From Patellaria atrata CBS 101060 (taxonomy: Eukaryota), in contig MU006106.1 in NCBI GenBank assembly GCA_010093705.1, forward strand, positions 1 through 64,000: a stretch of DNA of 64,000 nt, written 5' to 3'. This document shows positions 3,929 through 22,300 of the stretch, piece by piece. Under the pieces are notes generated by a model. The model was not told where the DNA came from and ran no database searches. It was given only the letters and a program-made list of their open reading frames with translations. The position numbers and the translations under genes are program-made. The first letter of the stretch is position 1; each line of letters starts with the position of its first letter.

Positions 3929-5991
3929 CTTGAGAGTGAGAGAAGTGCAACGAGCAAAATTCACGAAGAACAGGACAAGATGTTAAAGCAGGAAGAGAAC
4001 AAAACTAAACGCCCGTGAACGACGATATTTGTATATCTCATGGGTTTCGCACCAATTGATCCATGTTACAATGCGAAATGATGTACAGTGTGGATCGGAT
4101 GTCGTTTTAAGATTTCATCCTGGTTCGCTAATGCAACTGCCGGCAATTCAAGCTTCATTGTTAATTAATATCTATTCTGGGGTAATGGAAATCCTCTGAT
4201 TGGGCTCAGCGTAAGTGATTACCTTCGTCTCCGAATTGATTGCTCAACATCCATAGATCTTACAGCTCAAGGGGTTCCAAATGTACATGAAGTTAACCGC
4301 AATAGTTGACCCCGCAAATTGCAATACGCACGAGCGATATACGCAGCAACGAAATATCTTTCTAATCTATATACAGTGCAATCCGCAACTGGGGTGTACA
4401 TTACTGCACTGTAAACATCAACCTAGATTCCCGAGACTCCATTATCACCACAACGCTTCATAAACGCGGGGATTTGTCAACGTCTAGAACCAGAACGTGG
4501 CAATTCCGAAGCGAAGATTCGGTTTTTGTGTCTTATTGAGATAAGGCTTTTACATCGCTACGTTAGTATTGCTACACGAATAACCCTAACGTTAGTTGTC
4601 CTAAACTCTGTTTGAGAACATGTGAAAATCATTAGAGGATTCATGCACACGAGTATATTCTTAACTGGTTGGAATCATTGGAAGAACGGCGATTACCGAC
4701 ATCATCTTTTGAACCAGATGGTCGTATTATTGTTAAAGTATTTCCGGCAGATCTTATCTCGGTCAACATAAACACTTCACCCACGCCCGTCCAAGCCTAT
4801 CATTCAACGCCCAGAACTCATAGAAGATTACCATATTAGGAGTACACGCGACCTTAATCAATATAATCAGCCCGAAGCGTGGCTGTTATATCCTGGTCCC
4901 TTGCATCCGCGTGGGTTTACCAATACGCATATGACGACTACTTGACTTGGATTATCACAAATCTTTAACATCTACAAGAGTGTCAAAAACATGTTCTGCA
5001 ATTTCCTTAAACTATACCACCCGGTTCATTCCTTTTAGACCGCCATTCAATTTGAACCATGCCAGCTGAGATACTTTTCAGGACAAGACGTTTTCTTATT
5101 TGGGAGAACCTTCTACTGGTAGTCTCACTTACAGTTCTGCTTGGTCCTTCCACCGAAGACCTCGGCCGCAGTGGCTACCTTGGGCTATACCATAACCAAC
5201 GTCACCAAATCTGTCATTTCAGTCCACATGTGAACTTCTGCCCGAACATAAGGTCTGTGTGACTCGGGTACACTACTAAGGGGTTCTAGGAGTATGTATA
5301 CCTCTTATTCTTGTATGTTACTCATTCGTTCATATACGGTGGGTGTACCCTTGAATCAGTGCCGGGTTTATTGTTCTAACCGGATCAAACAAGCACCGTG
5401 CCCACAATCTAGATACCGATGGGTACTCGATCAGAAAATTACGAGATGACCCCTAAGGTAGAAAGAACTTTCAAGAGGGCCTTATTAGAGCACCATGTGT
5501 ATATCCCTTTACCGACGAAGACTTCAATAACCGGGATGTTCTTCATCACATACACAGCTTAGGACTGAATGTCAAAGAGTTCGTTCTAGAAGCCAAAACT
5601 CAGGGTTCAGTATTCCCTTCGTTTTTAGGAGGCATAAGGTCTGGACGAGTGATTGGAAAGTGCATTGCATGACCGAAAGCAATGGTCTTCAGTTCCGGAC
5701 TATACCGAACCAGTCCTCGCTGAGCGACAGTCAAAATTGTCACTGGATTATGGAAGAAAAATATCTCCTTAACCCGCTCAGGATGGGATGAAGCAACTCT
5801 CGACGTATATCTGAAGCCCATTGTTTCTTAAATCATGAGGATATAGTACTTATGGAATATATGGGTCTAAGTGCCCACCTACAGTTGTCCTCCGCCCACC
5901 CACCATCACCATCTCAGGAGTATTGCCCCTTCAATTCCGGAATGCAGGATTCAACGTCAGTAGTAACTTAATCGGACCATGCTCACTCAAC

Positions 5992-6354
5992 GCTTTTACA
6001 GCATACTCACACCTTTATAGCATACTCACACTCTTATAATATACTGATACCCTTATTGTATCTTTACACCCTTTTTAGTATCCTTGCACCCTTATAGCAT
6101 ACTTACACCCTTATAGCATAGCAGTATTGTAGATAATGCAATACAATGGATTAAAAAAAACACCCTTATAGCATACTGTAACAGGCTAGAGCCTAGTGGT
6201 ATGGGATGCCCTGCATCCGAAGATCAGCCAGTAATATTTCCCTCAAACCTTCCCTCAGACTTTTCTCTTCTTCTTCATCTTAATTGTAGATAGCATCTGG
6301 ACTAGACAGCTGGAACACAAATAATAGAGGCTGCCCACACATACTCATACCCTT
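5992..6354. repeat. Degenerate ~19-bp minisatellite (consensus CACACCCTTATAGCATACT), interrupted by insertions
   Basis: About 7 tandem degenerate copies at 5992-6120, another at 6161-6176 and a partial copy at 6340-6354. Confidence 0.85.
6177..6339. mobile_element. Probable solo LTR (163 bp)
   Basis: Starts TGTAAC and ends CCACA (TG...CA). Flanked by a 5-bp direct repeat CATAC (6172-6176 and 6340-6344) that splits a minisatellite unit. Confidence 0.7.
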
Positions 6355-6704
6355 GCAGAGTATGGCGTACTCTACTATCGCTTACATTGCGTCCTTTTAA
6401 ATAAGGCTCGAATTCTCGAATTCTATAGCGGGTGAAGAGCGCCTCCTCTTTCTCACATGATTGTCGTGAATGTTCTTCTATTCAATCAGTCAATGCAGCT
6501 GAAATTCGAGTGAAAGGACGGCTGTATTGTGAGAATTTTACAAAAGGCCATTAAATTGTGGCTGGAGAATCTTAGAAAGCAGGGTGAGAATCTACTCGTA
6601 TTTCTGTTAGATATACTGTAGGTCTAGCTCACGTATGTACTCGTAGGCCTACTGCTTCTTTAACAAAGTCGACATTGATTTGTGGTCTCAAATGATATCT
6701 TACA

Positions 6705-8516
6705 TCAATTCAATCGCCATTGGACAGAGGCGATATGCTTTGCGGCAATGTATGCAAAAGTCAGAGCAGGACCCAGTGTACTTCCTGCACCGATGTATTC
6801 TCTCCCCATGATTGCGGCTGAGCTATTACCCACAGCATATAGCCCTTGAATCACGCTTCCATCTTCCCGCAATGCTCTAGCAAACTCGTCCGTCAACACG
6901 CCACCCTTTGTCCCTAGATCGCCGGGGTAGATTTTAAGGGCGTAGAACGGGCTCTTCTCAATTGTACCCAAATTTGGGTTTCCACTGTATTTGGGATCTC
7001 CAAAGAATCGGTCATATGAACTAGACCCTCGGTGGAAGTCTCCGTCAACACCCTTAGCAACCATTGTGTTGAAACGGTCAACCGTCGCGTGAAGGGCATC
7101 GTCGTCAATCCCAAGCTTTTGAGCAAGTCCTAATAGCGTATCCTCTTTCACTATCAACCCGTTGTCCAGTAGTGCTTGAGAAGTTGCGCCAGGCATCATA
7201 CCAGCACATATGTATTGATTGCGGTGATTGGAGTCAAGGATCAGGAATGCCGGGATTGACGAGATTCTCCTGTTCCGCTTGAACTGATCGTTTACGAAAG
7301 CAGTGTACGACTGAGCTTCATTGGCGAACCTGTTTCCAGATTTATCAACTACCATTGCATGAGGCAGACCACGCTCAAATTGAGCCCAATAAACCCTCTT
7401 AGTCCTAGGATCTATAAACGTTGGGCCCCACCAGCCTTCGTCCATCAGTTCTGTTGCAGTACCTATCTTCACCGCAGCCAATATTGCATCCCCTTTGTCT
7501 TCCGGAGCTGCTAATGAATGTGATACTGCGCCCTCTTGTTTTTGATGCTGTTTCCGCATCTCTTCATTCTTTGCGAAACCTCCTGCCGCTAAAATCACGC
7601 CTTGAGCCGCTTCTATTGCAATACTCTTACCTCCCTTCTCAATGATAGCCCCTGTGACAATGCCATCTTTTTCAATGAGCTCTTTCATCGGTGAATTGGT
7701 CCATATAGGGACCTTTTTTTTAACATTCATGAGTAACAGTTGGCCAACCAAAGACATGCCCATCGTGACTGGAGCCCTACCGAGGAGTCTATTTCTCCAA
7801 AATCTCCATCTAACAACCCTCGCGGCCGTGAGAAACCCGTCTAGTGAACTTTTCGCTCGAAACAGTTTAGGACCTTCAAACGTGTAAAAGGGAAGGTTAG
7901 GCACACGTGGCGACATTCGCATCTTTTTTTGCCACCGTCCCAATTTACTAAGATCAAATACCTGTCCCTCGATACTCCGTCCATTATCTTTCCCACCCGG
8001 TTTATTTGGATAATAATCTGGGTATCCAACAGATGGTTGCTACTGGAATTCTTCACTCTGCAAAAACTTCACCATATCAGACCCTTCTTTCAGAAACGTT
8101 TCCTTACGCGCCGTGGTCGCAGCTCGCGACTCGTTTCCAACGGTTACCTCCATATACTTGAGTGCTTCGGAGATGCTGTCGTTAGCGTCAGGATGGATGC
8201 CAGAATTGGGGATCCAGAGACCGCCACCTGAATAGGAGGAGGTCCCGCCGATTAGTGAGCTCTTTTCGACAATCAGGGGAGATAAGCCGCTGGATTTTGC
8301 TTTTATGGCAGCAGTTAGGGCTGCGGCTCCGCTTCCGATGATGAGAATATCTGTTTTAACTACATTATGGGCTAAGAGTGAAGTATTCGTGCTTAAGGGG
8401 TGAGCAAAATGGTCTCTGGATGGACGTAGAAATTCTTGAGTAGCCCTTGTTCGATGCTGAAGTATGTATGAGTTTAGAAATCCTCGAGGACTTTGAGAGA
8501 GAGTCGTCGATTTCAT
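6705..8516 (-). CDS. FAD-dependent 3-ketosteroid-delta1-dehydrogenase (KstD)-like flavoprotein, intronless, one in-frame TAG at 8040-8042 (recoded gene or young pseudogene)
   Basis: Motifs DILIIGSGAAALTAA, GGTSSYSGGGLWIPN, YPDYYP, GVILAAGGF, RFANEAQSY, PGDLGTKGGVLTD and GLYAVGNSSAAIMGREYIGAGSTLG. ORFs 8040-8516 and 6705-7943 are in the same frame, joined by 32 open codons. Confidence 0.85.
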
Positions 8517-9420
8517 ATTAGATATGACCTCTTGTTGTGATCTCTAATGTGAGTATCTTTCTCCGAGTCACATTCCAATGATCGCAAGCTTGCAAACTTA
8601 AATAGCTAGAAGCGCTAGATATATAGAACTTTCCTCCATCGTGGAACGCCCCTATAGTATAAAGCCAAGTCGATGAGTCAGCTTATGTTCGAAAGCACTC
8701 AATTGACGGAAAAGGTCTGGAAGTTGTTTTCCTTTCATCCGACCATCCTAGACACTTTATTTCGTGTATAACTCTGGTAGTCAACGCTGCTCTTACTATT
8801 TAGTTTGTTTATAACTACCCATCTTGCTTTCTTTCATATTTTTTGATTTCGTTCTTCGAACTAGGGAAACCACTTCTTAGTAAAGAATATAGCTAAACAA
8901 CTCTCATGTTTCAAAAAGGTATAATGGAGCTTTTGCAGTCTTTCTTCAATCCACACAATGGGTTTCAAATAGACTGGAAACAACTTAAGTGCAACGGTTG
9001 TCAGAGTGCACCACGCTGATGAAATGATGTTAGCGTTAGCCTCGTACAGTCCAACCTTTATTTGTGCTCTCCATAGCAATAGATCCAGAACCTAACCCCG
9101 GCGAGTTGTCTGTAAGGAGCGATCATATTAAAGATGTTTGATGTTTAGTCATTTACCTCAAGTATGGAGTGCACCAGTTTAACTAGAGCATAGAACGAAA
9201 GAGAATCACCTCAACAAATAGATTCTGATTCTTATTACACTATAGACTCGTTTCAACGAAAAGGGAAGTATTTTGTAGCAACAATATTATATGAGATCAG
9301 AGAATGAAAGTGTGGCAGAATGTAAGAAATCTCAAGTTCAGTAACTGATCCCAAGGTCATCACCCATAACGCCTAACGACATCCAAGATCGTAAAGTTTC
9401 ACACCACGATAAAAAGAGGA

Positions 9421-10422
9421 TCACATCGGCGCGACAGGCGCAACAGGCGCGACTTGCAGGGAAACCGCAGTCAGGGAAACATCCCCATTCGGAAGCTCTT
9501 CAGCGACGACCTCATCCACATGAACCGCCTCAACGTACTCATCAGGGTCAAAGTCTGCCAGATCGTCTTCCTCGGCGGTAGTCTGCTCAACATGCATCTG
9601 ATGCTTGTTGCCTTCACTCCGTTCTTCTGGTGACTCCGACGATTGCGGCTGAGGAGTCGCCTCCGATTTCTTCGGCCTACCGGGACGGCCAGCCACTTTA
9701 GGACCATTCACAGCTTGTTTGAGTTGTTCGCTCAAACTGGTTCTGCCGTGTGGTCTCTTCACGACACTGGTGGTAGATTGTCCAGCACTTTTGGGTCTAC
9801 CACGTGGTTTCTTCGCAATACCAGTGCTAGCTTCTGCAGTACTCTTAGGTCTTCCGAGTAGTCTCTTCGCGACACCAGTGGTAGCTTGTTCAGTACCTTT
9901 AGGCCTTCTACGACCTTTCTTCGACGCGTTTGGCTCTGCGCTCCTTCTGGGTCTACCCGGAGATTTTTTAGTATCGTTAGGAGTTCCATCGACATTTCTA
10001 GGTCTTCCACGTGGTTTCTTGTTGACTCCGTCAGTAGCTTGTTCTGACTTCTTAGGTCTGCCGCGGCCTTTTGAGACTACACCGTTGGCAGGTTGTTCAC
10101 TTTTCTTAGGCCTCCCGCGATGCTTTCTAGACACATCGGATGCTTTGATTGCAGTAGTAGGTTCAGTAACGATCTTCTTTGGTCTGCCTCGAGAGCGCGT
10201 TGGAGCATCGGTGTCGCGAGACGCTAGCACAGCGGCATTGGGGTCTCTCTTAGGTCGCCCACGACCCCTTTTCACAAGTATACCGTCTTTAGTAGCTGCT
10301 ACAGTAGAAAGTCTTGCTCTTTTGTTGGGGGCACTAGCAGTTTCGGTCTGTTCAGCTTTGCGCTTCGCAGCGCGGCTGGGTGTCGAGGCGGAAATAGTAT
10401 TCGCTTGGGAAGGGGGACCCAT
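9421..10422 (-). CDS. Multi-AT-hook DNA-binding protein with acidic C-terminal tail (HMGA-like architecture)
   Basis: About 11 repeats of (R/P)GRP(K/R) or close variants, many spaced ~18-19 aa apart. Tail EEDDLADFDPDEYVEAVHVDEVVAEE. Confidence 0.8.
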   Translation of the reverse strand: MGPPSQANTISASTPSRAAKRKAEQTETASAPNKRARLSTVAATKDGILVKRGRGRPKRDPNAAVLASRDTDAPTRSRGRPKKIVTEPTTAIKASDVSRKHRGRPKKSEQPANGVVSKGRGRPKKSEQATDGVNKKPRGRPRNVDGTPNDTKKSPGRPRRSAEPNASKKGRRRPKGTEQATTGVAKRLLGRPKSTAEASTGIAKKPRGRPKSAGQSTTSVVKRPHGRTSLSEQLKQAVNGPKVAGRPGRPKKSEATPQPQSSESPEERSEGNKHQMHVEQTTAEEDDLADFDPDEYVEAVHVDEVVAEELPNGDVSLTAVSLQVAPVAPVAPM

Positions 10423-13168
10423 CTTCGTGAGGGTATGCGAACGGCACGATAGCGTACGGCTTTCGATATCTGCGATATATGAATAGCTAATTGAACGTGA
10501 GAACGCGCCTTTTGACGGATAGCATAACCGGAAACGTGGGGATGTGCTCTCGTTTACATTTTACAGATCTTATGGAACACGTTACAGGTCGGGTGCCAAG
10601 ACCGGATCAGGGCATAGATTCTGCACGGCTGATAGCAGACAATAAAGATAATTCCATATCGAAACTGGTATGAACAGTAATTCTGCAACTCTTCAATAAG
10701 AATTCAACCTTCTCTGAGCACTCTATAGAAATGAAGTGGACAGAAATGATGACAAAGCTACCCGGTGAATTTTTCACTCAGTTCCGAGCTCCATCCCTTG
10801 GCACCTCAAGTTACTCCCAACTCCTTTCCATTAGAAATCAGGTCTTCAACGCTTCCCTTTCTTCAATTTTTGAAACCATAGTTCCCTTCAGATGAAAAAT
10901 TCGTGTTTCGAGGAGATCTTTTCGAGCGCGAGTGAGGACAATGTCTCTTATTAATGTTCAATTAGAACTCTCACTGGAGTCTTGATCCGTCCTATTGACA
11001 CCTTGTGCACCCTAGGCCGCACTCGAGTTTTCCATAATGGAACACATGATGAGGTACTGTTCCTGAACGCCAACTTCTGCACCGAAACCACGTGACCAGG
11101 CGAACTCATTAACACCGTCTGAATAGGTTGGGCTCATTTTGGCAGGGTTGACTTGCTTGATAGGGGGAGAGAGTATTTCAGTTTAATTTTAGTCTTGTAA
11201 TCCGCGGTAAGTTCTTCATACAGATAACGAAGATGATGAGTGGTTAGTCATCGAAAGAAAGCTGGTGGTTCTGATGACTGTTACGGGCTGAGGATTCGAG
11301 ACTGAAGTAGTCCCGTTGGATGTTTGGTTGGTAGCTTAATTTAAGACTTCATTAATTAAGAATAGGCTGTTGGGTTCCCGCCTTGAGGAATATATATACT
11401 ATAAAATGCCAATATTAAATTTGTGTTGTTGTACGAAGTCAGCCTTAGTATCACCACCTTTAGTGTCATTGTTAGAAATACTGCCAACGTCATAACTTAA
11501 CTTTCAGTGTATGTGATGTCAAGTGTCGTCTTCATCTTAGCTGAGTACGCTGGCTATTTAATGACCCGAGTGTTTGGTCTGGCCACGGCCCAAATACGGC
11601 TGAATTGTAAAATCTGGGAAAGTTTGGCCATGTGGGTAGTCAAGGTAAAGCTTAGGGCAGAAATATGCTATCGAAAGCCACGTGCGGTGTTTACCGCAAA
11701 GGATCAGCTAGGATAAAGAAGGTCCCTAGGGAAAACAATATCTGTAGGATGTTATCATAAAACCTTGTGAAAAAGGGATGACAGAATAACTCTACAAGAG
11801 AAAGTCCAACTTGAGCAAATGACCGAAGAAGTTATATCTCGATTTGAAGTTAGTTCACATTATGAAAAATCAGTGGAGAGTAGGCCTTCATCGCTACATA
11901 TTCAGATGTTTCCCCAGTGAGGTAGAACCAAAACTACGCCCGGTAACTCTGATGTGTTGCTGGTGATAGCTTCAGAGTATAGTCATGATCTAAGGTTGTG
12001 AGATGAAGTTAGGAAAGGAAACAGGGAAAAAGCTAATTTTTGCCAGAGCCGTAAGGTGGAGGTACAAGAAAGGCGGAGCACACTTACGTACGGTAATAGC
12101 TATGGGTCATGTGAAGAAGAAGCAGGTTGTAAACTACGAACACGAAAGGTGTTGTGGAACAGATATGAAAGATACAGTAAGAACGTCTAGTGAACTCAGG
12201 TCTGATAGAATCGCGCAACCGCATCTGGAGAATATATGCATTATGACATTAATCTGATCACTCTTCAGGTATCGAATGGAAGAAAAGTAATAAGACATAG
12301 AATGACAGAGTGATATATACAGAAAGCATGGGAAAGTTAAAACTACAAGCAAGTGTGGCAAGGAGCTGAAAATGGAAGTCTCGGCAATTCTTAGTCAGCG
12401 GGGATAGTCCTATAAATCGGCGGAGGAGTCCAAATGGGTCCAAAATCGACGAATAAAAACCTTACTATTACAAAAAATCTTACGCTTGGATGTTCAGCTC
12501 TTCAAAATCTTTAATTACATCCTAGGGGGCGACGAAGCTTTAAAGCTCCTCGTTAAGATCCAGAGAGAGCGGGTTGTTGAATTCTACGTTCGGGGGGGAT
12601 GTTTCATTGCGATATAACGGATCCCAACGGTACGGTTGGACACATCTCTTCGGCTTTGATGGCTCAATAAAACACTGTAGCTTGCCGCTTTATGAACACT
12701 GTTGTACTGTACGAAGTAGTTCTGCTTCATTCGTGCGCTTTCTATAGTCCGACAATTTATGAAGAATCGAGATCAAGACCCAAGGTAACAATACCTAGTT
12801 CATTTTCAGTTACTGAGCGTTGGGTTCTTTTGAATTGCTAAGTTATATTCTCCACGAGGTCTTTTCAGTCAATGTTGAAAACCCTCAGTTTAAATAGTGT
12901 CAGATTTGTGATGCACAAATCGATCGGGGGATATCGCTTGATTGTTTAATGACTGTTCTAACGAGCGTTTAAATACATGAGAACATGCAGGCAACAGCGT
13001 TGATACCTACTAGGCAGCTGTGTCAAAGGAATGGTGCTAATAGCTAGCGTAAGGCAGTAGGAAATATACTTGATTATCCGTTACTACTAACTTCTTCAGT
13101 CTGACAAATAGGAAGCTGTTGAAATTATATCACTCAGGCCGTACGTTTCCCACTCTGATTATGAACGG

Positions 13169-14347
13169 CTATGCCGCTATCTTCAAATTCTTACTTGGAC
13201 CCCAATCAAGATATCCCTCTTGTCCTTTATGCTTGATTTTAGTCGGTAATTGGAATTCTGGGTGCGACTGCTTGTAAAACTTTAGATCCATGGCCAGCTT
13301 CATATCAACCTTTGTGGCTTGAATTTCCCTCCCTAAGTATCTAATAAGGGATTTATACACAGTCTCTGCAAGAGCCGGTTGTTCAGATATTAACGGCGTA
13401 GAGCCCCATAAGAAGGTTTCCAGAGGTTTTACAGACTGTGCTTCTTGGAGACGTCGGGAAATCTGCTCGAGTAGAGTCTCGATGTTGAGTAGATTACTAG
13501 TAGCCGTCTGGATACTGTTTCTAACTTCTGCAGCTGTAGAATAAGTGAAATTGTATGTATCTGTTCCCTGGAGCATTCCTTCTTTTGCTTGGTTTAGATT
13601 TGTATCAAGGTCATCAGACTTATTATGAATATTGCATTCATACCCCTTCTTGAACGTGGTTCTGCAAGAAGCAACCAATTTCCCAAATATAGTCGTCAAT
13701 AGCAATTGGATTCGGGCGTTGAGGGAGCAACTGCATGTTAATATGTTTGAGAGAAGATCCACAACGTCTTGGTTGGTCTGAATACCGTCGGTGTCTCGCC
13801 TTCGCGGCGAAGACCCCATGTACGGTTGATCACACAAACTGAGACAAATATTGGGAGGGGTGTGTAACTTTTGCAGGATGTTCAGAGCGATATCGAAACA
13901 ACTTCTAGGCTGGTATGAGCAACTATTACGGCTGAAGGAGTGATGCTCGTTCCCGCGGGATCTGACGGGTGATAAGCTCTGTGCTAAATCGTCTTCTAGT
14001 CTTGTGTCCATTGGTGTAGGTAACTGAACAGGAGACATGGGGGCCGAGAGAGGAACGCAGAAGTCGTCGAAATCAAACTCTTCATGCGTGTCGTTCCCCA
14101 TTATGGGAGAGTGTATCCTATCTAACGGAGGAAAGTCGCTAATAGGTGGATAGTCGGATTGCTCTTGCTCATAACTGTTCCACGAAGCTATATTGGAATT
14201 CAGCTCAGGTAATGTATTGCCGTAAACGGATTGTTCGATATCATGGCAGCCACATTCCATACTTTCTAAGCCCTCGACTTGGCGTAATGATACTGTGGCA
14301 GTTGAGGGTGGAATATTTGAGGTATCTCTGTAAAGGAAAGCTTCCAT
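13169..14347 (-). CDS. AflR-like C-terminal regulatory-domain protein lacking a visible Zn cluster
   Basis: 392-aa ORF with SCFDIALNILQKLH...NQDVVDLLSNILTCSCSLNARIQLLLTTIFGKLV, resembling the AflR C-terminal domain. No CxxC cluster in the ORF. Confidence 0.65.
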   Translation of the reverse strand: MEAFLYRDTSNIPPSTATVSLRQVEGLESMECGCHDIEQSVYGNTLPELNSNIASWNSYEQEQSDYPPISDFPPLDRIHSPIMGNDTHEEFDFDDFCVPLSAPMSPVQLPTPMDTRLEDDLAQSLSPVRSRGNEHHSFSRNSCSYQPRSCFDIALNILQKLHTPPNICLSLCDQPYMGSSPRRRDTDGIQTNQDVVDLLSNILTCSCSLNARIQLLLTTIFGKLVASCRTTFKKGYECNIHNKSDDLDTNLNQAKEGMLQGTDTYNFTYSTAAEVRNSIQTATSNLLNIETLLEQISRRLQEAQSVKPLETFLWGSTPLISEQPALAETVYKSLIRYLGREIQATKVDMKLAMDLKFYKQSHPEFQLPTKIKHKGQEGYLDWGPSKNLKIAA

Positions 14348-15118
14348 TCTCAGCTAACTAGAAGCGAAACGTGGTATTTCTCTAGGCGACGCCTGAAGGA
14401 ATAAAGGATTTCAGATTTGCCAGAACTTACTCATTAAGATATCCACGTGGGATTATACTTATCAGTTAAGACGAGATATGCAAGCGACAGATATTGATAA
14501 ATCGGACTTGCATGTGAATGATAGAATAAGAGCAGGGTCTGGAAGCCAAGCGGGTGACACTTAAAATGAGACCTGATTTCTATTTCGAGGCAGGCAGGCA
14601 ATAGACTCTCTTGCTTCATGTGCAACTCTTACGCAGCAGCTAGTTGGTATGAAGAATTACTGCTCGGAAAGGTGATATGGGGTTTCTCCGAGCTGGATTG
14701 AACGGTGAAAGCGAAAGAGATATACTTTATGCACGATTCTTATACGTGAATGCACAGAAAAAGGTTGCTTCTACTTATCCAAACTCCATCCACTTGGGCG
14801 GAGATGATTGTAAGATGCGGAAAAGAAAGAATGGTGGTGACGGTGGTATGAAAGAGTGACCGAGTAAGGCCCGCGGTGTGGGGACCGGAGTTCTGGGGTT
14901 TGTTACCTTTCCTGGGTGGTTAAACCTACCTTGAAGTCCTGAAGAGCGAATACATACAAACCCCGAGACTCCATTGAGAATGCGCCATCAAATATTTTTA
15001 TGATGGAAGGCTGCTTGTCCTAGCAGCAGACATGTTATTCTTCCCATCCTTTTCAATATCCTTCTTGGCCCATGTCTCATAATACAACCGCTATTCCATT
15101 GTTACGAGACAAAGAAAT

Positions 15119-16423
15119 ATGTCTGCGTTTGGTTGTAATGGAAAAAGCATTTCCAAGAAGATTCAGAAACTAAAGGATACCTGTGACATGTGCTCAGTGT
15201 CAAAAGTTAAATGCAGCAAAGAAAAACCGCATTGCGCTCGATGTGAGAAATTGGATTTTCCATGTGTTTACAGTCCTGCAAGACGAATGGGAAGGCCACA
15301 TCCACATAGAGACAAAGACAGAAAAGCGAAGGTCAAGGACCAGGAACTGCAATTTTGCTCAAAGAGGGCCACGAGTGAGACCGTTGACCCTGGATTCAGT
15401 GTTCTGGAAAACGAAACATATAATAGTTCTACTCGGAGTAGCTCATCTAAGCCTCACAATATTACTTGCGGTTTTATAAACCATGATCTCAACTCTCTAC
15501 CACTAGGACAGCAAGTGAGTAACCAGATGGATGAAAAATCAGAGTTATTTAAAAATCCAGACAAGGCAAACAACACAACACTTTCCCGCGAATCTTCTTG
15601 CAGATCGAGCCGACTGAGTAAAGCTGAATCAAGACCTGCAGACGGGCGTAAAAGTCCAATATCTGGATTGGGCGATGTCCACTCAGAATCAGAGTATACC
15701 AGCAGTATCCGGAGCTCCTACGACCCGATATCGGGTGTTTTTACTCTCTGTAATACATCTATCCATACCAAGAGCCATTCGAGCACAGTTGGTCCATTTT
15801 CGGGAATGCGTACTCCTCTAAACGTAACCAACGATGAGGGAAGTCCTCGTGGGACCGGCAAGCCCCAAGTTCCGAAATCCCCGTCATACATGGAAGAATT
15901 TGATTTAGGCCTCGATTGTGCCACTACTGTTATGCTGATGCTTCAAGACCTTAATATGATGGACGGAATACCAAAAAAGTGCAACAAGGGAGCAGATCCA
16001 CCGAGCGTACACGTCATTTTAAACCTAGCATCAGTGTGTATTAGACGAATCTCCAAAATTTTGATATGTCCGTGCTCCCAGAAGACGGAAGTAGGACTCT
16101 TAGTGGCAGTGGTCTGCAATGCTATTCTTGACGTTTACACTGCGAGCCTTCGTGCACCGAGACAGCAACTTACTAGCAGAGGTTATGACGGTCGGAATAT
16201 GATCGATTTGGGAACCTGGGATATTTCGGGGGAAAAGACGAGCATAATGTCAGTACTAGAGGAGCTTCCAAAGATTGCCAACTTGATAGTACAATTTACC
16301 AAACGGTACCAGGATATCGAACACCATTTGGTACTGGACTTTTTACCTGCGTTAGCAGTATCGCTGAAGGTTAGGCTGAAGTCTGTTATCAGCGAAGCAA
16401 TTGATAGCGTAGTCAAGGGCTGA
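15119..16423 (+). CDS. AflR-like Zn(II)2Cys6 transcription factor
   Basis: KLKDTCDMCSVSKVKCSKEKPHCARCEKLDFPCVYSPARRMGRP, plus a C-terminal DCATTV...ILICPCS domain. Confidence 0.9.
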   Translation: MSAFGCNGKSISKKIQKLKDTCDMCSVSKVKCSKEKPHCARCEKLDFPCVYSPARRMGRPHPHRDKDRKAKVKDQELQFCSKRATSETVDPGFSVLENETYNSSTRSSSSKPHNITCGFINHDLNSLPLGQQVSNQMDEKSELFKNPDKANNTTLSRESSCRSSRLSKAESRPADGRKSPISGLGDVHSESEYTSSIRSSYDPISGVFTLCNTSIHTKSHSSTVGPFSGMRTPLNVTNDEGSPRGTGKPQVPKSPSYMEEFDLGLDCATTVMLMLQDLNMMDGIPKKCNKGADPPSVHVILNLASVCIRRISKILICPCSQKTEVGLLVAVVCNAILDVYTASLRAPRQQLTSRGYDGRNMIDLGTWDISGEKTSIMSVLEELPKIANLIVQFTKRYQDIEHHLVLDFLPALAVSLKVRLKSVISEAIDSVVKG

Positions 16424-19311: not shown

Positions 19312-22300
19312 TCATCTGAGTTGCCCATCGACTAAGCTGTCATATACCTTCTGGCTTGGATTGTTCGCATCGTACTTGTCCTTTTGAAGCTCTTTACGAA
19401 TTCTCCCTACTCTCTCGAGTAACTTTGCAGCCCTTGTTTCGTTAACCTCAACAACAGACAGGGCATACAGGACGCGTGCTTCTTCACATAGTGCGGTTTG
19501 GAGAAGAATATTGATGTCTAAGCTTTCACGAAGCGTCGACCTGGATCAAACCGTGTAAGAAAGATGTCTCTAAGAAGGGTAAGGTGTATCCCACCTAGCA
19601 TGGGCTCTAAGGTCCTTCTCGGCAGCAATAAGACCCTGCTCGAACAGACAGCAAGCGTGTAGAAGGTTCCGGACGTCCTTGAGCTTCTCTAAATCCTCGA
19701 TAGCGGCTTGACACGCTTCTATAGCAGGATCGAGCTTATTCTGCGATCGGAGCATCTGACCACGGTTTTGTTTGATACTAATATGTCAGCTTCAAGGCCA
19801 TCAATATGTTCCTTCCTTTAACATGCGATAGTGTTCCTAACCTGCCGTACATTTGGTTTCTAGCATTCTTCGACTCTGATGTACGGGGAGTGGACAAAGT
19901 AGAGGATTGCTAGTTGTTCCGTACCACTTGACCATAGAGGATAGAAATCAACCTAGTACCCGGATATAGCAGCCCCCAATAGTGCTTGAACAGAACGTAC
20001 AGAGGTTCGGAATAGCTAAAACAACAGTGGAGAGGATAGGATTGGGGGGAGCGTGTCTTACTGGACTGCCATGTATATATCTTTGTTTTTCAAACCTGCA
20101 CTGTCAATCTTCTGTTTGGCTTCATCGAATCTGCCAAGAATGGTGCATATACTTCCTAAGTTGAGCTCGTAGGTTGCCCTAGTAATAATTTAGTCGCTTC
20201 ACGGTACTTATCTAGTGCTTATTGTGGCAGGTCCATGCCCAAATACAGATTACCTAAATTTTCTGTGACAGAGAATAAGTCGAGGTTCAAGTCTTCACGA
20301 ATCATCCTAAATTCCTTCATGAGAGCTAACGCGCCGACGAAATCTTCGCATTGAGCGTGAACGCGGGCAGCGTTGTTGCACAGGCGGGCTTATGAAGCCA
20401 GGTGCCGATCTTCAAACCCAGATTTGTGCATTGCTTCCATTGTAGATTCAATCATAGGCACCGCTTCTTTGATCTGATGAACTTGGACACAATATCAAGT
20501 GGCATTGCACATGAGCAAGCAATAATCGTCTGACGGACGCGGCGCTAGCTTCGCAGCAATCCCAGAGTGATAATGGTCTCGTAAAGAATCCACCTGTTGG
20601 GCACGCGTATGACATTCTAAAAGTCGATTTCTATATCTTTCGTCGCCCCACTTTTTTAGGAAACCACTCGTACAGAACTTTTAATGCGGCATCGAAGTAT
20701 CGCTGGCGATCTGAATCACCTATAGAGGTCTCACACGCCAATTAAACCAAGCGATTTATAGAGTATTGTGCTTTTGTCTGGTTATAATCGATTAGCGCAA
20801 GGTCGGTTAAGGCCTTGACTTGTTCGGAAAAGCTGAGTTATATCAACAAAAGATACCTTTTATAATGTGCAAGGAATACTAACTCAATATCATCATGGAA
20901 GAAGCCCAACCAATCTCGCTGTTCGATATCTTCGTCAATGACGAGCATATCCTTATCAATACTATCAGGTGAAATAAACCCCATGACTCCCAAGACCAAT
21001 AATGCTTCATTATTGAGAGATTTTATAGAGGACAAAAAGAGACCCGTCATTAAAGTAGTATATCCAGCATGTAGTAGTTCCGGTGTTGAGACCTCTAGGA
21101 CTTTCCGGGGTCGTATTTGGAAAACCTGTGACATTCTTTAGATAGTCATGGAGCGGGTCGTGATGAATGCAGCTAACTGCGTGAGCGCCAGCGGATATCC
21201 ATGTAATCCTTCCGTAAATACTCTTGCTGCACGTAACTCTGCATTTTGATCTTCCTGAATAATATGGTCTTTCTGTTTGGACTAGATGTAAAAGGGATAT
21301 AGCCGCGTTCTCGGTCTCGAACATGTCTAACCCGCGTTTCGCCGGCTGCTTAGCAAAGGTATGTTTTCGGGTCGTCAGAATGATATGGCCTCTTTCCGAT
21401 ACCGGCCAGTGTCTAAGAAGTACATCGGCTCTATCGACGTTATCATATATGAGCAGCCATCTCACCCCTATCGAGGTTAGTTGACTGCTTTTTATCTCTA
21501 ATAATATACTTACTGTTTGTTGGAGCCAACTGAGGACCTCTATATGGTTTTGGGCACGTTGGTTCCACTTGATATTGGGTAATTTCAATTGAACAGCTGC
21601 TTCGCCAAAGATGGCCTCGAGGCTCGATTCTGTTTCGGCATTGGACCATAAAATAGCGTCATATTGATCCCTTTTACTCAGGGCGTAGTGAAGTGCGAGC
21701 TGAGACTTGCCTAGGCCACCAAGAGAGTAGATCGCAATAGACGCTATATCATCTACGCTGAATTGCTCCGCAAAAAGGATTTGCAATTTAGCAATCTCAC
21801 CTTCGCGTCCAAAGAAAAGGGGTTTTTACTAGCCAGTATATAGTGACATGGTAGACTAGCAGCATCCTGATATGTTTCACTGGCCGCGGGATTCCAACGC
21901 TGGAGTTGAGATGCTTCGGCTTGGACCGATGCCCTGATGGCAAACGAAACAAACTGATTGATTTAAGATACGGATTCTTCAAGCCAATCTATCACTTCGT
22001 TGAACTTGTTCGAGATCTCGCACAAGGTATTTTCTTCGAGAACTTACGAATGTTCATATCAGCAAAATCTTGTCAGGGATATATACCTCTCGTCCGTTGC
22101 CGCATATCTCGCCTACAGTACGCTCGCTCCGTTGAAAAAGATACGGGTGTTGTGCACACGTACGTAGAAGGCAAGGATACAAAAAAGAGAGATCGGTTGA
22201 TGCTGGAGGTCAAACAGTCACCCCAGTAGTTGTTCCACAAGCGTAAGGAGTCGAGGAAGGCGATAAGGAAAAGAGTTACCCACCTTCCGGGCTATCGCGA

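Follow-up and report, generated by a model that had tools for sequence, protein, structure and literature searches.

Introduction

The 3-ketosteroid-delta1-dehydrogenases (KstD) include KstD1 of Rhodococcus erythropolis SQ1 (PDB 4c3x and 4c3y), for which Tyr119, Tyr318, Tyr487 and Gly491 are given as key residues and Phe116 as an active-site residue (PMC5348764). The present analysis concerns a KstD-like flavin adenine dinucleotide (FAD) flavoprotein gene in a stretch of 64,000 nucleotides (nt) from the fungus Patellaria atrata CBS 101060 (GenBank assembly GCA_010093705.1, contig MU006106.1, positions 1 to 64,000; the whole stretch is called the window below). The gene lies on the minus strand at 6705..8516 and its reading frame is interrupted once, by a TAG at codon 159. 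The locus resembles the KstD family in its full-length FAD-binding domain and in having counterparts of the four key residues, and differs from the known enzymes in the interruption itself and in a Glu at a position where its clade invariably has Gly.

A fungal parallel is offered by the premature-stop-corrected (PSC) pseudogenes, known from Fusarium graminearum with PUK1 as an example, which carry a single in-frame TAG derived from TGG, are otherwise intact and were hidden or mishandled in annotation (PMC10776026, PMC11156358). PSC sites are described as arising mainly by TGG>TAG at an ancestral Trp (Qi et al. 2024, PMC10776026), and 55 of the 71 PSC genes of F. graminearum are up-regulated in perithecia while 50 of the 71 encode disordered regions (PMC10776026). 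Such stops are recoded by A-to-I mRNA editing, which, together with the Tad3-Ame1 interaction, has been placed at the origin of the Sordariomycetes, with a separate origin in the Pezizomycetes, i.e. in Pyronema (PMC11087585, PMC10776026). The edited A is preferably preceded by U and prefers a hairpin loop, the latter being a preference rather than a strict rule; genome-wide editing is reported as not found in Aspergillus nidulans or Botrytis cinerea (PMC11156358). The other classes are listed as undetermined (PMC11156358, PMC10776026), and for single-species premature stops in other classes of the Pezizomycotina editing is said to be 'yet to be determined' (PMC10776026). The locus shares with the PSC pseudogenes the lone in-frame TAG, the otherwise intact frame and the troubled annotation. 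Unlike them, it belongs to a different fungal class for which editing has not been reported in the literature consulted, its A lies outside a hairpin loop in the local fold, and it encodes a housekeeping-type metabolic enzyme, whereas PSC genes are mostly perithecium-up-regulated and have disordered regions.

Leaky stop codons of the tobacco mosaic virus (TMV) type are a second parallel. The TMV-type consensus after the stop is CARYYA and the yeast one CARNBA. A context of this kind promotes readthrough in plant, yeast and mammalian cells alike, and with CARYYA a level of about 15% was reached in a construct tested in the last of these, UAG being about as good as UGA (PMC4132726). The UAG of the locus is followed by CAA CCA, which fits both consensus strings. 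The known TMV-type cases, however, are conserved stops that end functional upstream open reading frames, whereas the stop of the locus stands in mid-domain in place of a conserved Trp, and the coding of a conserved Gln-Pro suffices to explain the hexamer. The third parallel is found in young unitary pseudogenes, or nonsense alleles, that are masked in annotation by very short introns. One nonsense change, little decay and an in-frame excision are also what we see here, and there is no notable difference between the locus and this class.

On balance we consider it probable, with a good deal of room for doubt, that this KstD-like flavoprotein gene exists here as a young nonsense allele or pseudogene, hidden in the annotation by an artificial intron of 39 nt.

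The KstD-like frame and its stop codon

The frame extends from the ATG at 8516 to the terminal TGA at 6707-6705 and has 603 sense positions (coordinates are those of the window; the gene and all its features are on the minus strand). A single internal stop is present, TAG at 8042-8040, which reads in its minus-strand context as ttc cag TAG caa cca. For the profile and structure searches the frame was read with X at the stop codon. PF00890 (FAD_binding_2) was matched at 1.6e-68 over profile positions 1-414 of 414 (residues 56-581), and because the profile is matched end to end, a chance open reading frame is excluded and we are dealing with a true gene frame. The dinucleotide-binding GxGxxA/G motif is present as IIGSGAAA (residues 58-65). 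Among known structures, a 3-oxosteroid 1-dehydrogenase (PDB 7p18) was matched at 1.1e-104 over residues 55-597 and KstD1 of R. erythropolis SQ1 (PDB 4c3x) at 7.7e-85; helE is named among the fungal homologues. By these similarities the locus is a 3-ketosteroid-delta1-dehydrogenase-like gene, in which the uninterrupted coding frame proper to KstD and FAD_binding_2 proteins is broken at codon 159.

The catalytic positions were located by alignment to the 4c3x chain, whose numbering is offset by 20, as verified by the F116-P-D-Y119 pattern in the residue table of PMC5348764. Tyr168 (TAT, 8013..8015), Tyr404 (TAC, 7305..7307), Tyr574 (6797-6795) and Gly578 (6785-6783) align to chain positions 139, 338, 507 and 511, i.e. 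they are the counterparts of Tyr119, Tyr318, Tyr487 and Gly491, respectively, and they sit in the motifs YPDY, NEAQSY and GREYIGAG. The counterpart of the active-site residue Phe116 is Tyr165 (8024-8022). A first-pass annotation, made from the letters of this DNA, had described a KstD-like frame of 603 codons with one in-frame UAG and apparently intact catalytic tyrosine motifs, and the domain and structure matches bear out both descriptions.

The ancestral residue and a second substitution

The protein search was evaluated on the best 120 of 1205 matches; one of these is the public model of the locus itself, which was set aside, so that 119 homologues were aligned. In the column of the stop codon the homologues have W 88 times, F 19 times, L 4 times, A 3 times and G 2 times, and each of the 30 closest has W. 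Since W is found in all 30 closest and in 88 of the 119 homologues, and since its codon is one transition away from TAG, the stop likely arose from TGG by a single G>A change at 8041. The first-pass annotation had likewise taken the site for a probable ancestral Trp.

The same annotation saw the TAG as the only lesion of the gene, which the alignment shows to be wrong. Three codons upstream, at codon 156 (8049..8051), the window has GAA, i.e. Glu, in a column where 118 of the 119 homologues have Gly and the remaining one has a gap. A change from GGA to GAA would account for this second departure.

Presence of both substitutions in the DNA

The site was checked in Logan contigs of two sequencing runs (X1 and X2) of one sample from one study. 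The contigs cover 6414-12955 and 6252-12881, and since they cross both genes and spacers the runs behave as DNA. Compared with the window, the contigs have 0 other letters and 0 gaps, at a mean word depth of 330 and 470, with the limits that the runs are possibly of the assembly's own sample, and so not independent of it, and that such contigs drop rare variants. Because the contigs of both runs match without difference, the read consensus at the site is TAG and not TGG.

A sequencing error had earlier been regarded as fully plausible. That the organism truly has TGG, and that the TAG is a product of sequencing or assembly, could be argued from the single base that separates TAG from the expected codon and from the fact that all data come from one strain. 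With 0 differences in the contigs of two runs a sequencing error is unlikely; TAG and GAA are found together in contigs, rebuilt independently for each run, that agree with the window over more than 6 kb, and the second departure, also of the G>A type, is just 9 nt away. We consider a true TGG extremely improbable.

Conservation of the remaining frame

The state of the frame was compared first with the 40 closest homologues. Among these, 74 columns are invariant and 127 show at least 95% conservation; the frame differs in 2 of the former and in 6 of the latter, the six being S133A, P146S, G156E, W159*, A353T and V569I. Four of the six fall within residues 133-159. When each of the 40 homologues was left out in turn and counted in the same way, 38 showed 0-3 departures and two showed 8 and 11, a comparison that is biased against a sequence without a close relative in the set. 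Measured over all 120 sequences, it deviates in 1 of 63 columns when a column must be at least 97% conserved and in 5 of 119 when at least 90% is asked for, which is a middle rank.

Branch lengths give the same picture. A FastTree tree (LG+gamma, midpoint root) was built from 550 columns of 116 of the 120 sequences, a filter of 520-700 amino acids having removed four. The frame has a root-to-tip length of 0.907, the median being 0.908, which puts it at rank 58 of 116, and its path from the node shared with the sister clade is 0.444, compared with 0.60-0.77 for the nine sisters. Because both the departures at conserved columns and the branch lengths are ordinary, the sequence speaks for a gene without a long history of relaxed constraint; the damage would be either recent or tolerated.

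Repeat-induced point mutation (RIP) was considered as the cause of the lesions and rejected on the dinucleotide indices of the gene and the window. RIP is marked by a high TpA/ApT and a low (CpA+TpG)/(ApC+GpT); the gene has 0.69 and 1.30, respectively, and there is no 2-kb bin of the window with a positive composite index. The window contains 11 other junctions at which a single stop parts two open stretches, most of them opposite long genes, and no second TAG at a recognisable conserved Trp was found among them.

The public protein model

The top protein match is P0002, a protein of 580 amino acids deposited as '3-ketosteroid dehydrogenase [Patellaria atrata CBS 101060]', with 98% identity. 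P0002 is the same as the window frame except for the first residue and a gap of 13 residues, and because it is otherwise identical we take it to be the public model of this locus. It reads ...FLQ-N-YYPNK..., i.e. SEEFQ*QPSVGYPD has been removed. In the DNA this corresponds to the excision, as an intron, of a 39-nt GTGAAG...CCCAG segment (8018..8056), which joins A8057 to AT at 8017-8016 and so creates an Asn codon. The excision is in frame and takes out the TAG and G156E together.

The excised segment is, judging by the alignment, homologous and conserved coding sequence. All 13 positions are occupied by a residue in 117 of the 119 homologues, and the whole segment is absent in only one of the 119, P0099, a fragment of 404 amino acids. 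Seven of the 13 positions agree with the column consensus and GYPD is unchanged; the segment includes Tyr165 as well as the Asp directly before the catalytic Tyr168.

As an intron the segment is poor. We compared it with four introns of the window whose removal restores a fully open frame; the genes that contain them are one with DUF1996 and one that is actin-like (n=4; 2 and 4 stops before removal, 0 after). These are 48, 57, 53 and 49 nt long, with the donors GTAAGT, GTGAGT, GTAGGT and GTATGT, respectively. The segment has GT..AG ends and is 9 nt below the shortest of the four; its donor, GTGAAG, is weak, and no YTRAY branch motif is found in it. The earlier statement that there are no intron signals around the stop was nearly right, save that this weak GT..AG pair does span the stop and is the one used by the public model. 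Other introns could be drawn over the TAG: there are 76 GT..AG spans of 30-200 nt, and the listed ones below 150 nt have no suitably placed YTRAY. One of the candidates, an in-frame span of 90 nt (8107-8018) with the donor GTAAGG, was rejected, as it would delete 31 conserved codons.

The 5' end of the public model also departs from the frame. It appears to begin with ATGG at 8822-8819 and to continue with a GT..AG span of about 336 nt that reaches to 8483 (the whole 5' structure thus occupying 8483..8822). ATGG|GT at 8822-8819 is the only such fit upstream; it gives M-GFLNSY and skips the in-frame ATG at 8516.

Alternative explanations

Under the favoured reading, a G>A transition would have turned the TGG codon of the conserved Trp159 into TAG, and the Gly codon three codons upstream, invariant in the clade, would have come to read GAA (Glu). 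Translation from the ATG at 8516 would then stop after 158 residues, within the FAD-binding part and upstream of all four catalytic counterparts, and function would presumably be lost. The rest of the frame would look healthy as there would have been too little time for more decay. The deposited protein of 580 amino acids would be an annotation workaround, in which an in-frame GT..AG of 39 nt was called an intron in order to pass the stop.

Several observations sit uneasily with a young nonsense allele or pseudogene, in addition to the bias of the leave-one-out comparison noted above. The DNA runs are probably of the assembly's sample, and a mutation that arose in culture would look identical. 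Outside residues 133-159 the frame is kept as well as in working homologues, which fits a gene under selection too. Beyond the public model the protein search reaches 61% identity at most, and the 4 loci from a scan of metagenomes have 33-38%; no close orthologue was found in either. It is physically plausible that the UAG-CAA-CCA context lets some full-length protein be made. Lastly, the odd 5' end, with a coding start of 4 nt followed by an intron of about 336 nt, could mean that the public model is based on transcripts and that the 39-nt splice is real.

This last point leads to the explanation that the 39-nt segment is truly spliced, a damaged coding stretch having become an intron, so that the cell makes the protein of 580 amino acids without the 13 residues. 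The GT..AG ends, a length that is a multiple of three and the removal of both lesions at once would suit it; two lesions within 13 codons and few elsewhere are the pattern expected of a stretch released from coding constraint; and the 5' structure may hint at transcript evidence. Set against this are the shortness of the segment relative to the local introns (48-57 nt), the weak donor and missing branch motif, and the occupancy of the segment in nearly all homologues with GYPD unchanged. The product would lose the Phe116 counterpart and have the Asp before Tyr168 replaced by Asn, which makes its enzymatic function doubtful. It is common for gene callers to bridge a stop with a small intron. 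Annotation errors are known to have mislabelled premature-stop genes in Fusarium (PMC10776026). All in all we regard real splicing as quite unlikely. Leaky termination would leave the transcript as it is: a small percentage of ribosomes would decode the UAG of UAG-CAA-CCA with a near-cognate residue and carry on, and the little full-length enzyme so made would still be useful or regulated. The first-pass annotation emphasised the TMV-type context, and the six bases after the stop do fit CARYYA and CARNBA (PMC4132726). The frame downstream of the stop is undecayed, and the column tolerates other residues, as the F, L and A of 26 homologues show, and as does the Tyr of the AcmB-like 7p18. What falls away is the idea that the context was selected for readthrough. 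The annotation had itself named, as speaking against its idea, a CAACCA (8034..8039) that simply encodes a conserved Gln-Pro (Gln160-Pro161), and this is what the homologues indicate: of the 8 sister-clade members listed, 6 read W-Q-P, and 23 of the 30 closest homologues have Pro at +2. Every Gln codon is CAR, and CCA makes up 27% of the Pro codons in ten long open reading frames of the window. Because a conserved Gln-Pro is encoded, any Gln gives CAR and CCA is this common, the 'canonical' context is, given the protein, about a one-in-four coincidence, with no sign of selection. The stop is not conserved either, all 30 closest relatives having W in its place, and the readthrough product would keep Glu in place of the invariant Gly156. 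With the stop at codon 159 of 603, the mRNA would moreover probably be subject to nonsense-mediated decay. A search for a suppressor tRNA in the window with ARAGORN found 0 tRNA genes. We judge functional readthrough to be unlikely.

Restorative A-to-I editing would convert UAG to UGG in fruiting bodies and make the stop a stage-specific switch, as in the PSC pseudogenes; the first-pass annotation had borrowed this idea from Fusarium and Neurospora. In its favour, the site has the form of a PSC site, its UAG going back to an ancestral UGG and being preceded by U, the frame is otherwise intact, and premature stops in other Pezizomycotina have been left 'yet to be determined' as to editing (PMC10776026). 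The host speaks against it. Patellaria is a Dothideomycete and so lies outside the Sordariomycetes and Pyronema, the lineages in which the editing system has been placed (PMC11087585, PMC10776026), and the A. nidulans and B. cinerea results point the same way (PMC11156358). We found no report of mRNA editing in the Dothideomycetes; the papers in which both subjects occur mention the class in other connections. Nor does the local fold resemble a preferred site: over 81 nt it is no more stable than 200 shuffles (z = -0.15), and the A at 8041 is paired, rather than placed in a hairpin loop, in both the minimum free energy and the centroid fold. Restoring Gly156 would need a second edit, in a GAA with G at -1, where U is preferred and G is disfavoured. 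Editing at this codon is in our opinion very unlikely. The wider proposal that the UAG is a conditional switch, silent in the mycelium and restored by sexual-stage editing or by readthrough in its context, or in a variant that the 39-nt stretch is a new short intron, is decidedly doubtful as well. A young nonsense allele or pseudogene therefore stays the reading we prefer, and as such the finding is ordinary in kind.

Its consequence is mostly a point of curation: the record of 580 amino acids exists only if a conserved coding stretch of 39 nt is spliced, and on the favoured reading the count of KstD-like enzymes for this fungus is one too many. What interest remains lies in the locus as a convenient, well-defined place to test for mRNA editing beyond the Sordariomycetes or for the splicing of a 39-nt mini-intron. 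Editing, were it true, would mean that in a Dothideomycete a metabolic enzyme gene is restored by recoding, for the first time and beyond the two classes known to edit mRNA.

Genomic neighbourhood

The surroundings of the gene show no steroid or fusidane cluster, the neighbours being a DUF1996 gene, an AT-hook open reading frame and AflR-like regulators. The first-pass annotation had contrasted the gene with decayed neighbours. This applies to an NLR-like gene at about 19500-21825 (minus strand), with NB-ARC at 2.5e-6, a weak DUF7779, one TPR and many short frames, which is likely a multi-lesion pseudogene; it does not apply to the immediate neighbours, which look intact.

Upstream of the KstD-like gene, at 9424-10560 on the same strand, there is an intact frame of 379 amino acids with a weak AT-hook match (E = 1.5e-4). 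Within it a 28-nt unit recurs, with five copies at a spacing of 48-54 nt (9786-10020), and the product looks like a repetitive DNA-binding protein of the AT-hook type. Further away, a divergent pair of AflR-like regulators is located at 13172-14353 (minus strand) and 15083-16420 (plus strand). A Zn(2)Cys(6) domain was found in the frame at 15083-16420, and none is shown in the 394-amino-acid frame of 13172-14353. The pair may mark a secondary-metabolite cluster or the remains of one.

Just 3' of the KstD-like gene, within 5995-6410, there is a run of tandem-like units of about 19 nt of the TTTAYAGCATACTCACACC type, with 5 copies listed. Beside this run, at about 6150-6410, the long contigs of both runs break and the summed word depth rises to about 18,900 and 23,300, and because of this jump in depth the stretch is taken to be a high-copy genomic repeat. 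A second stretch of high depth (about 5,300-5,400), at which the long DNA contigs end, is found at 12898-13000. The possibility that the two flanking repeats form one mobile unit was rejected, as the stretches at about 6150-6410 and about 12900-13000 have no repeat family in common.

Another in-frame TAG is seen on the plus strand at 2143-2145. It is followed by CAGATT and parts two open stretches of the same frame, 226 and 78 codons long, neither of which matches Pfam; this is probably the end of a gene followed by a chance open stretch.

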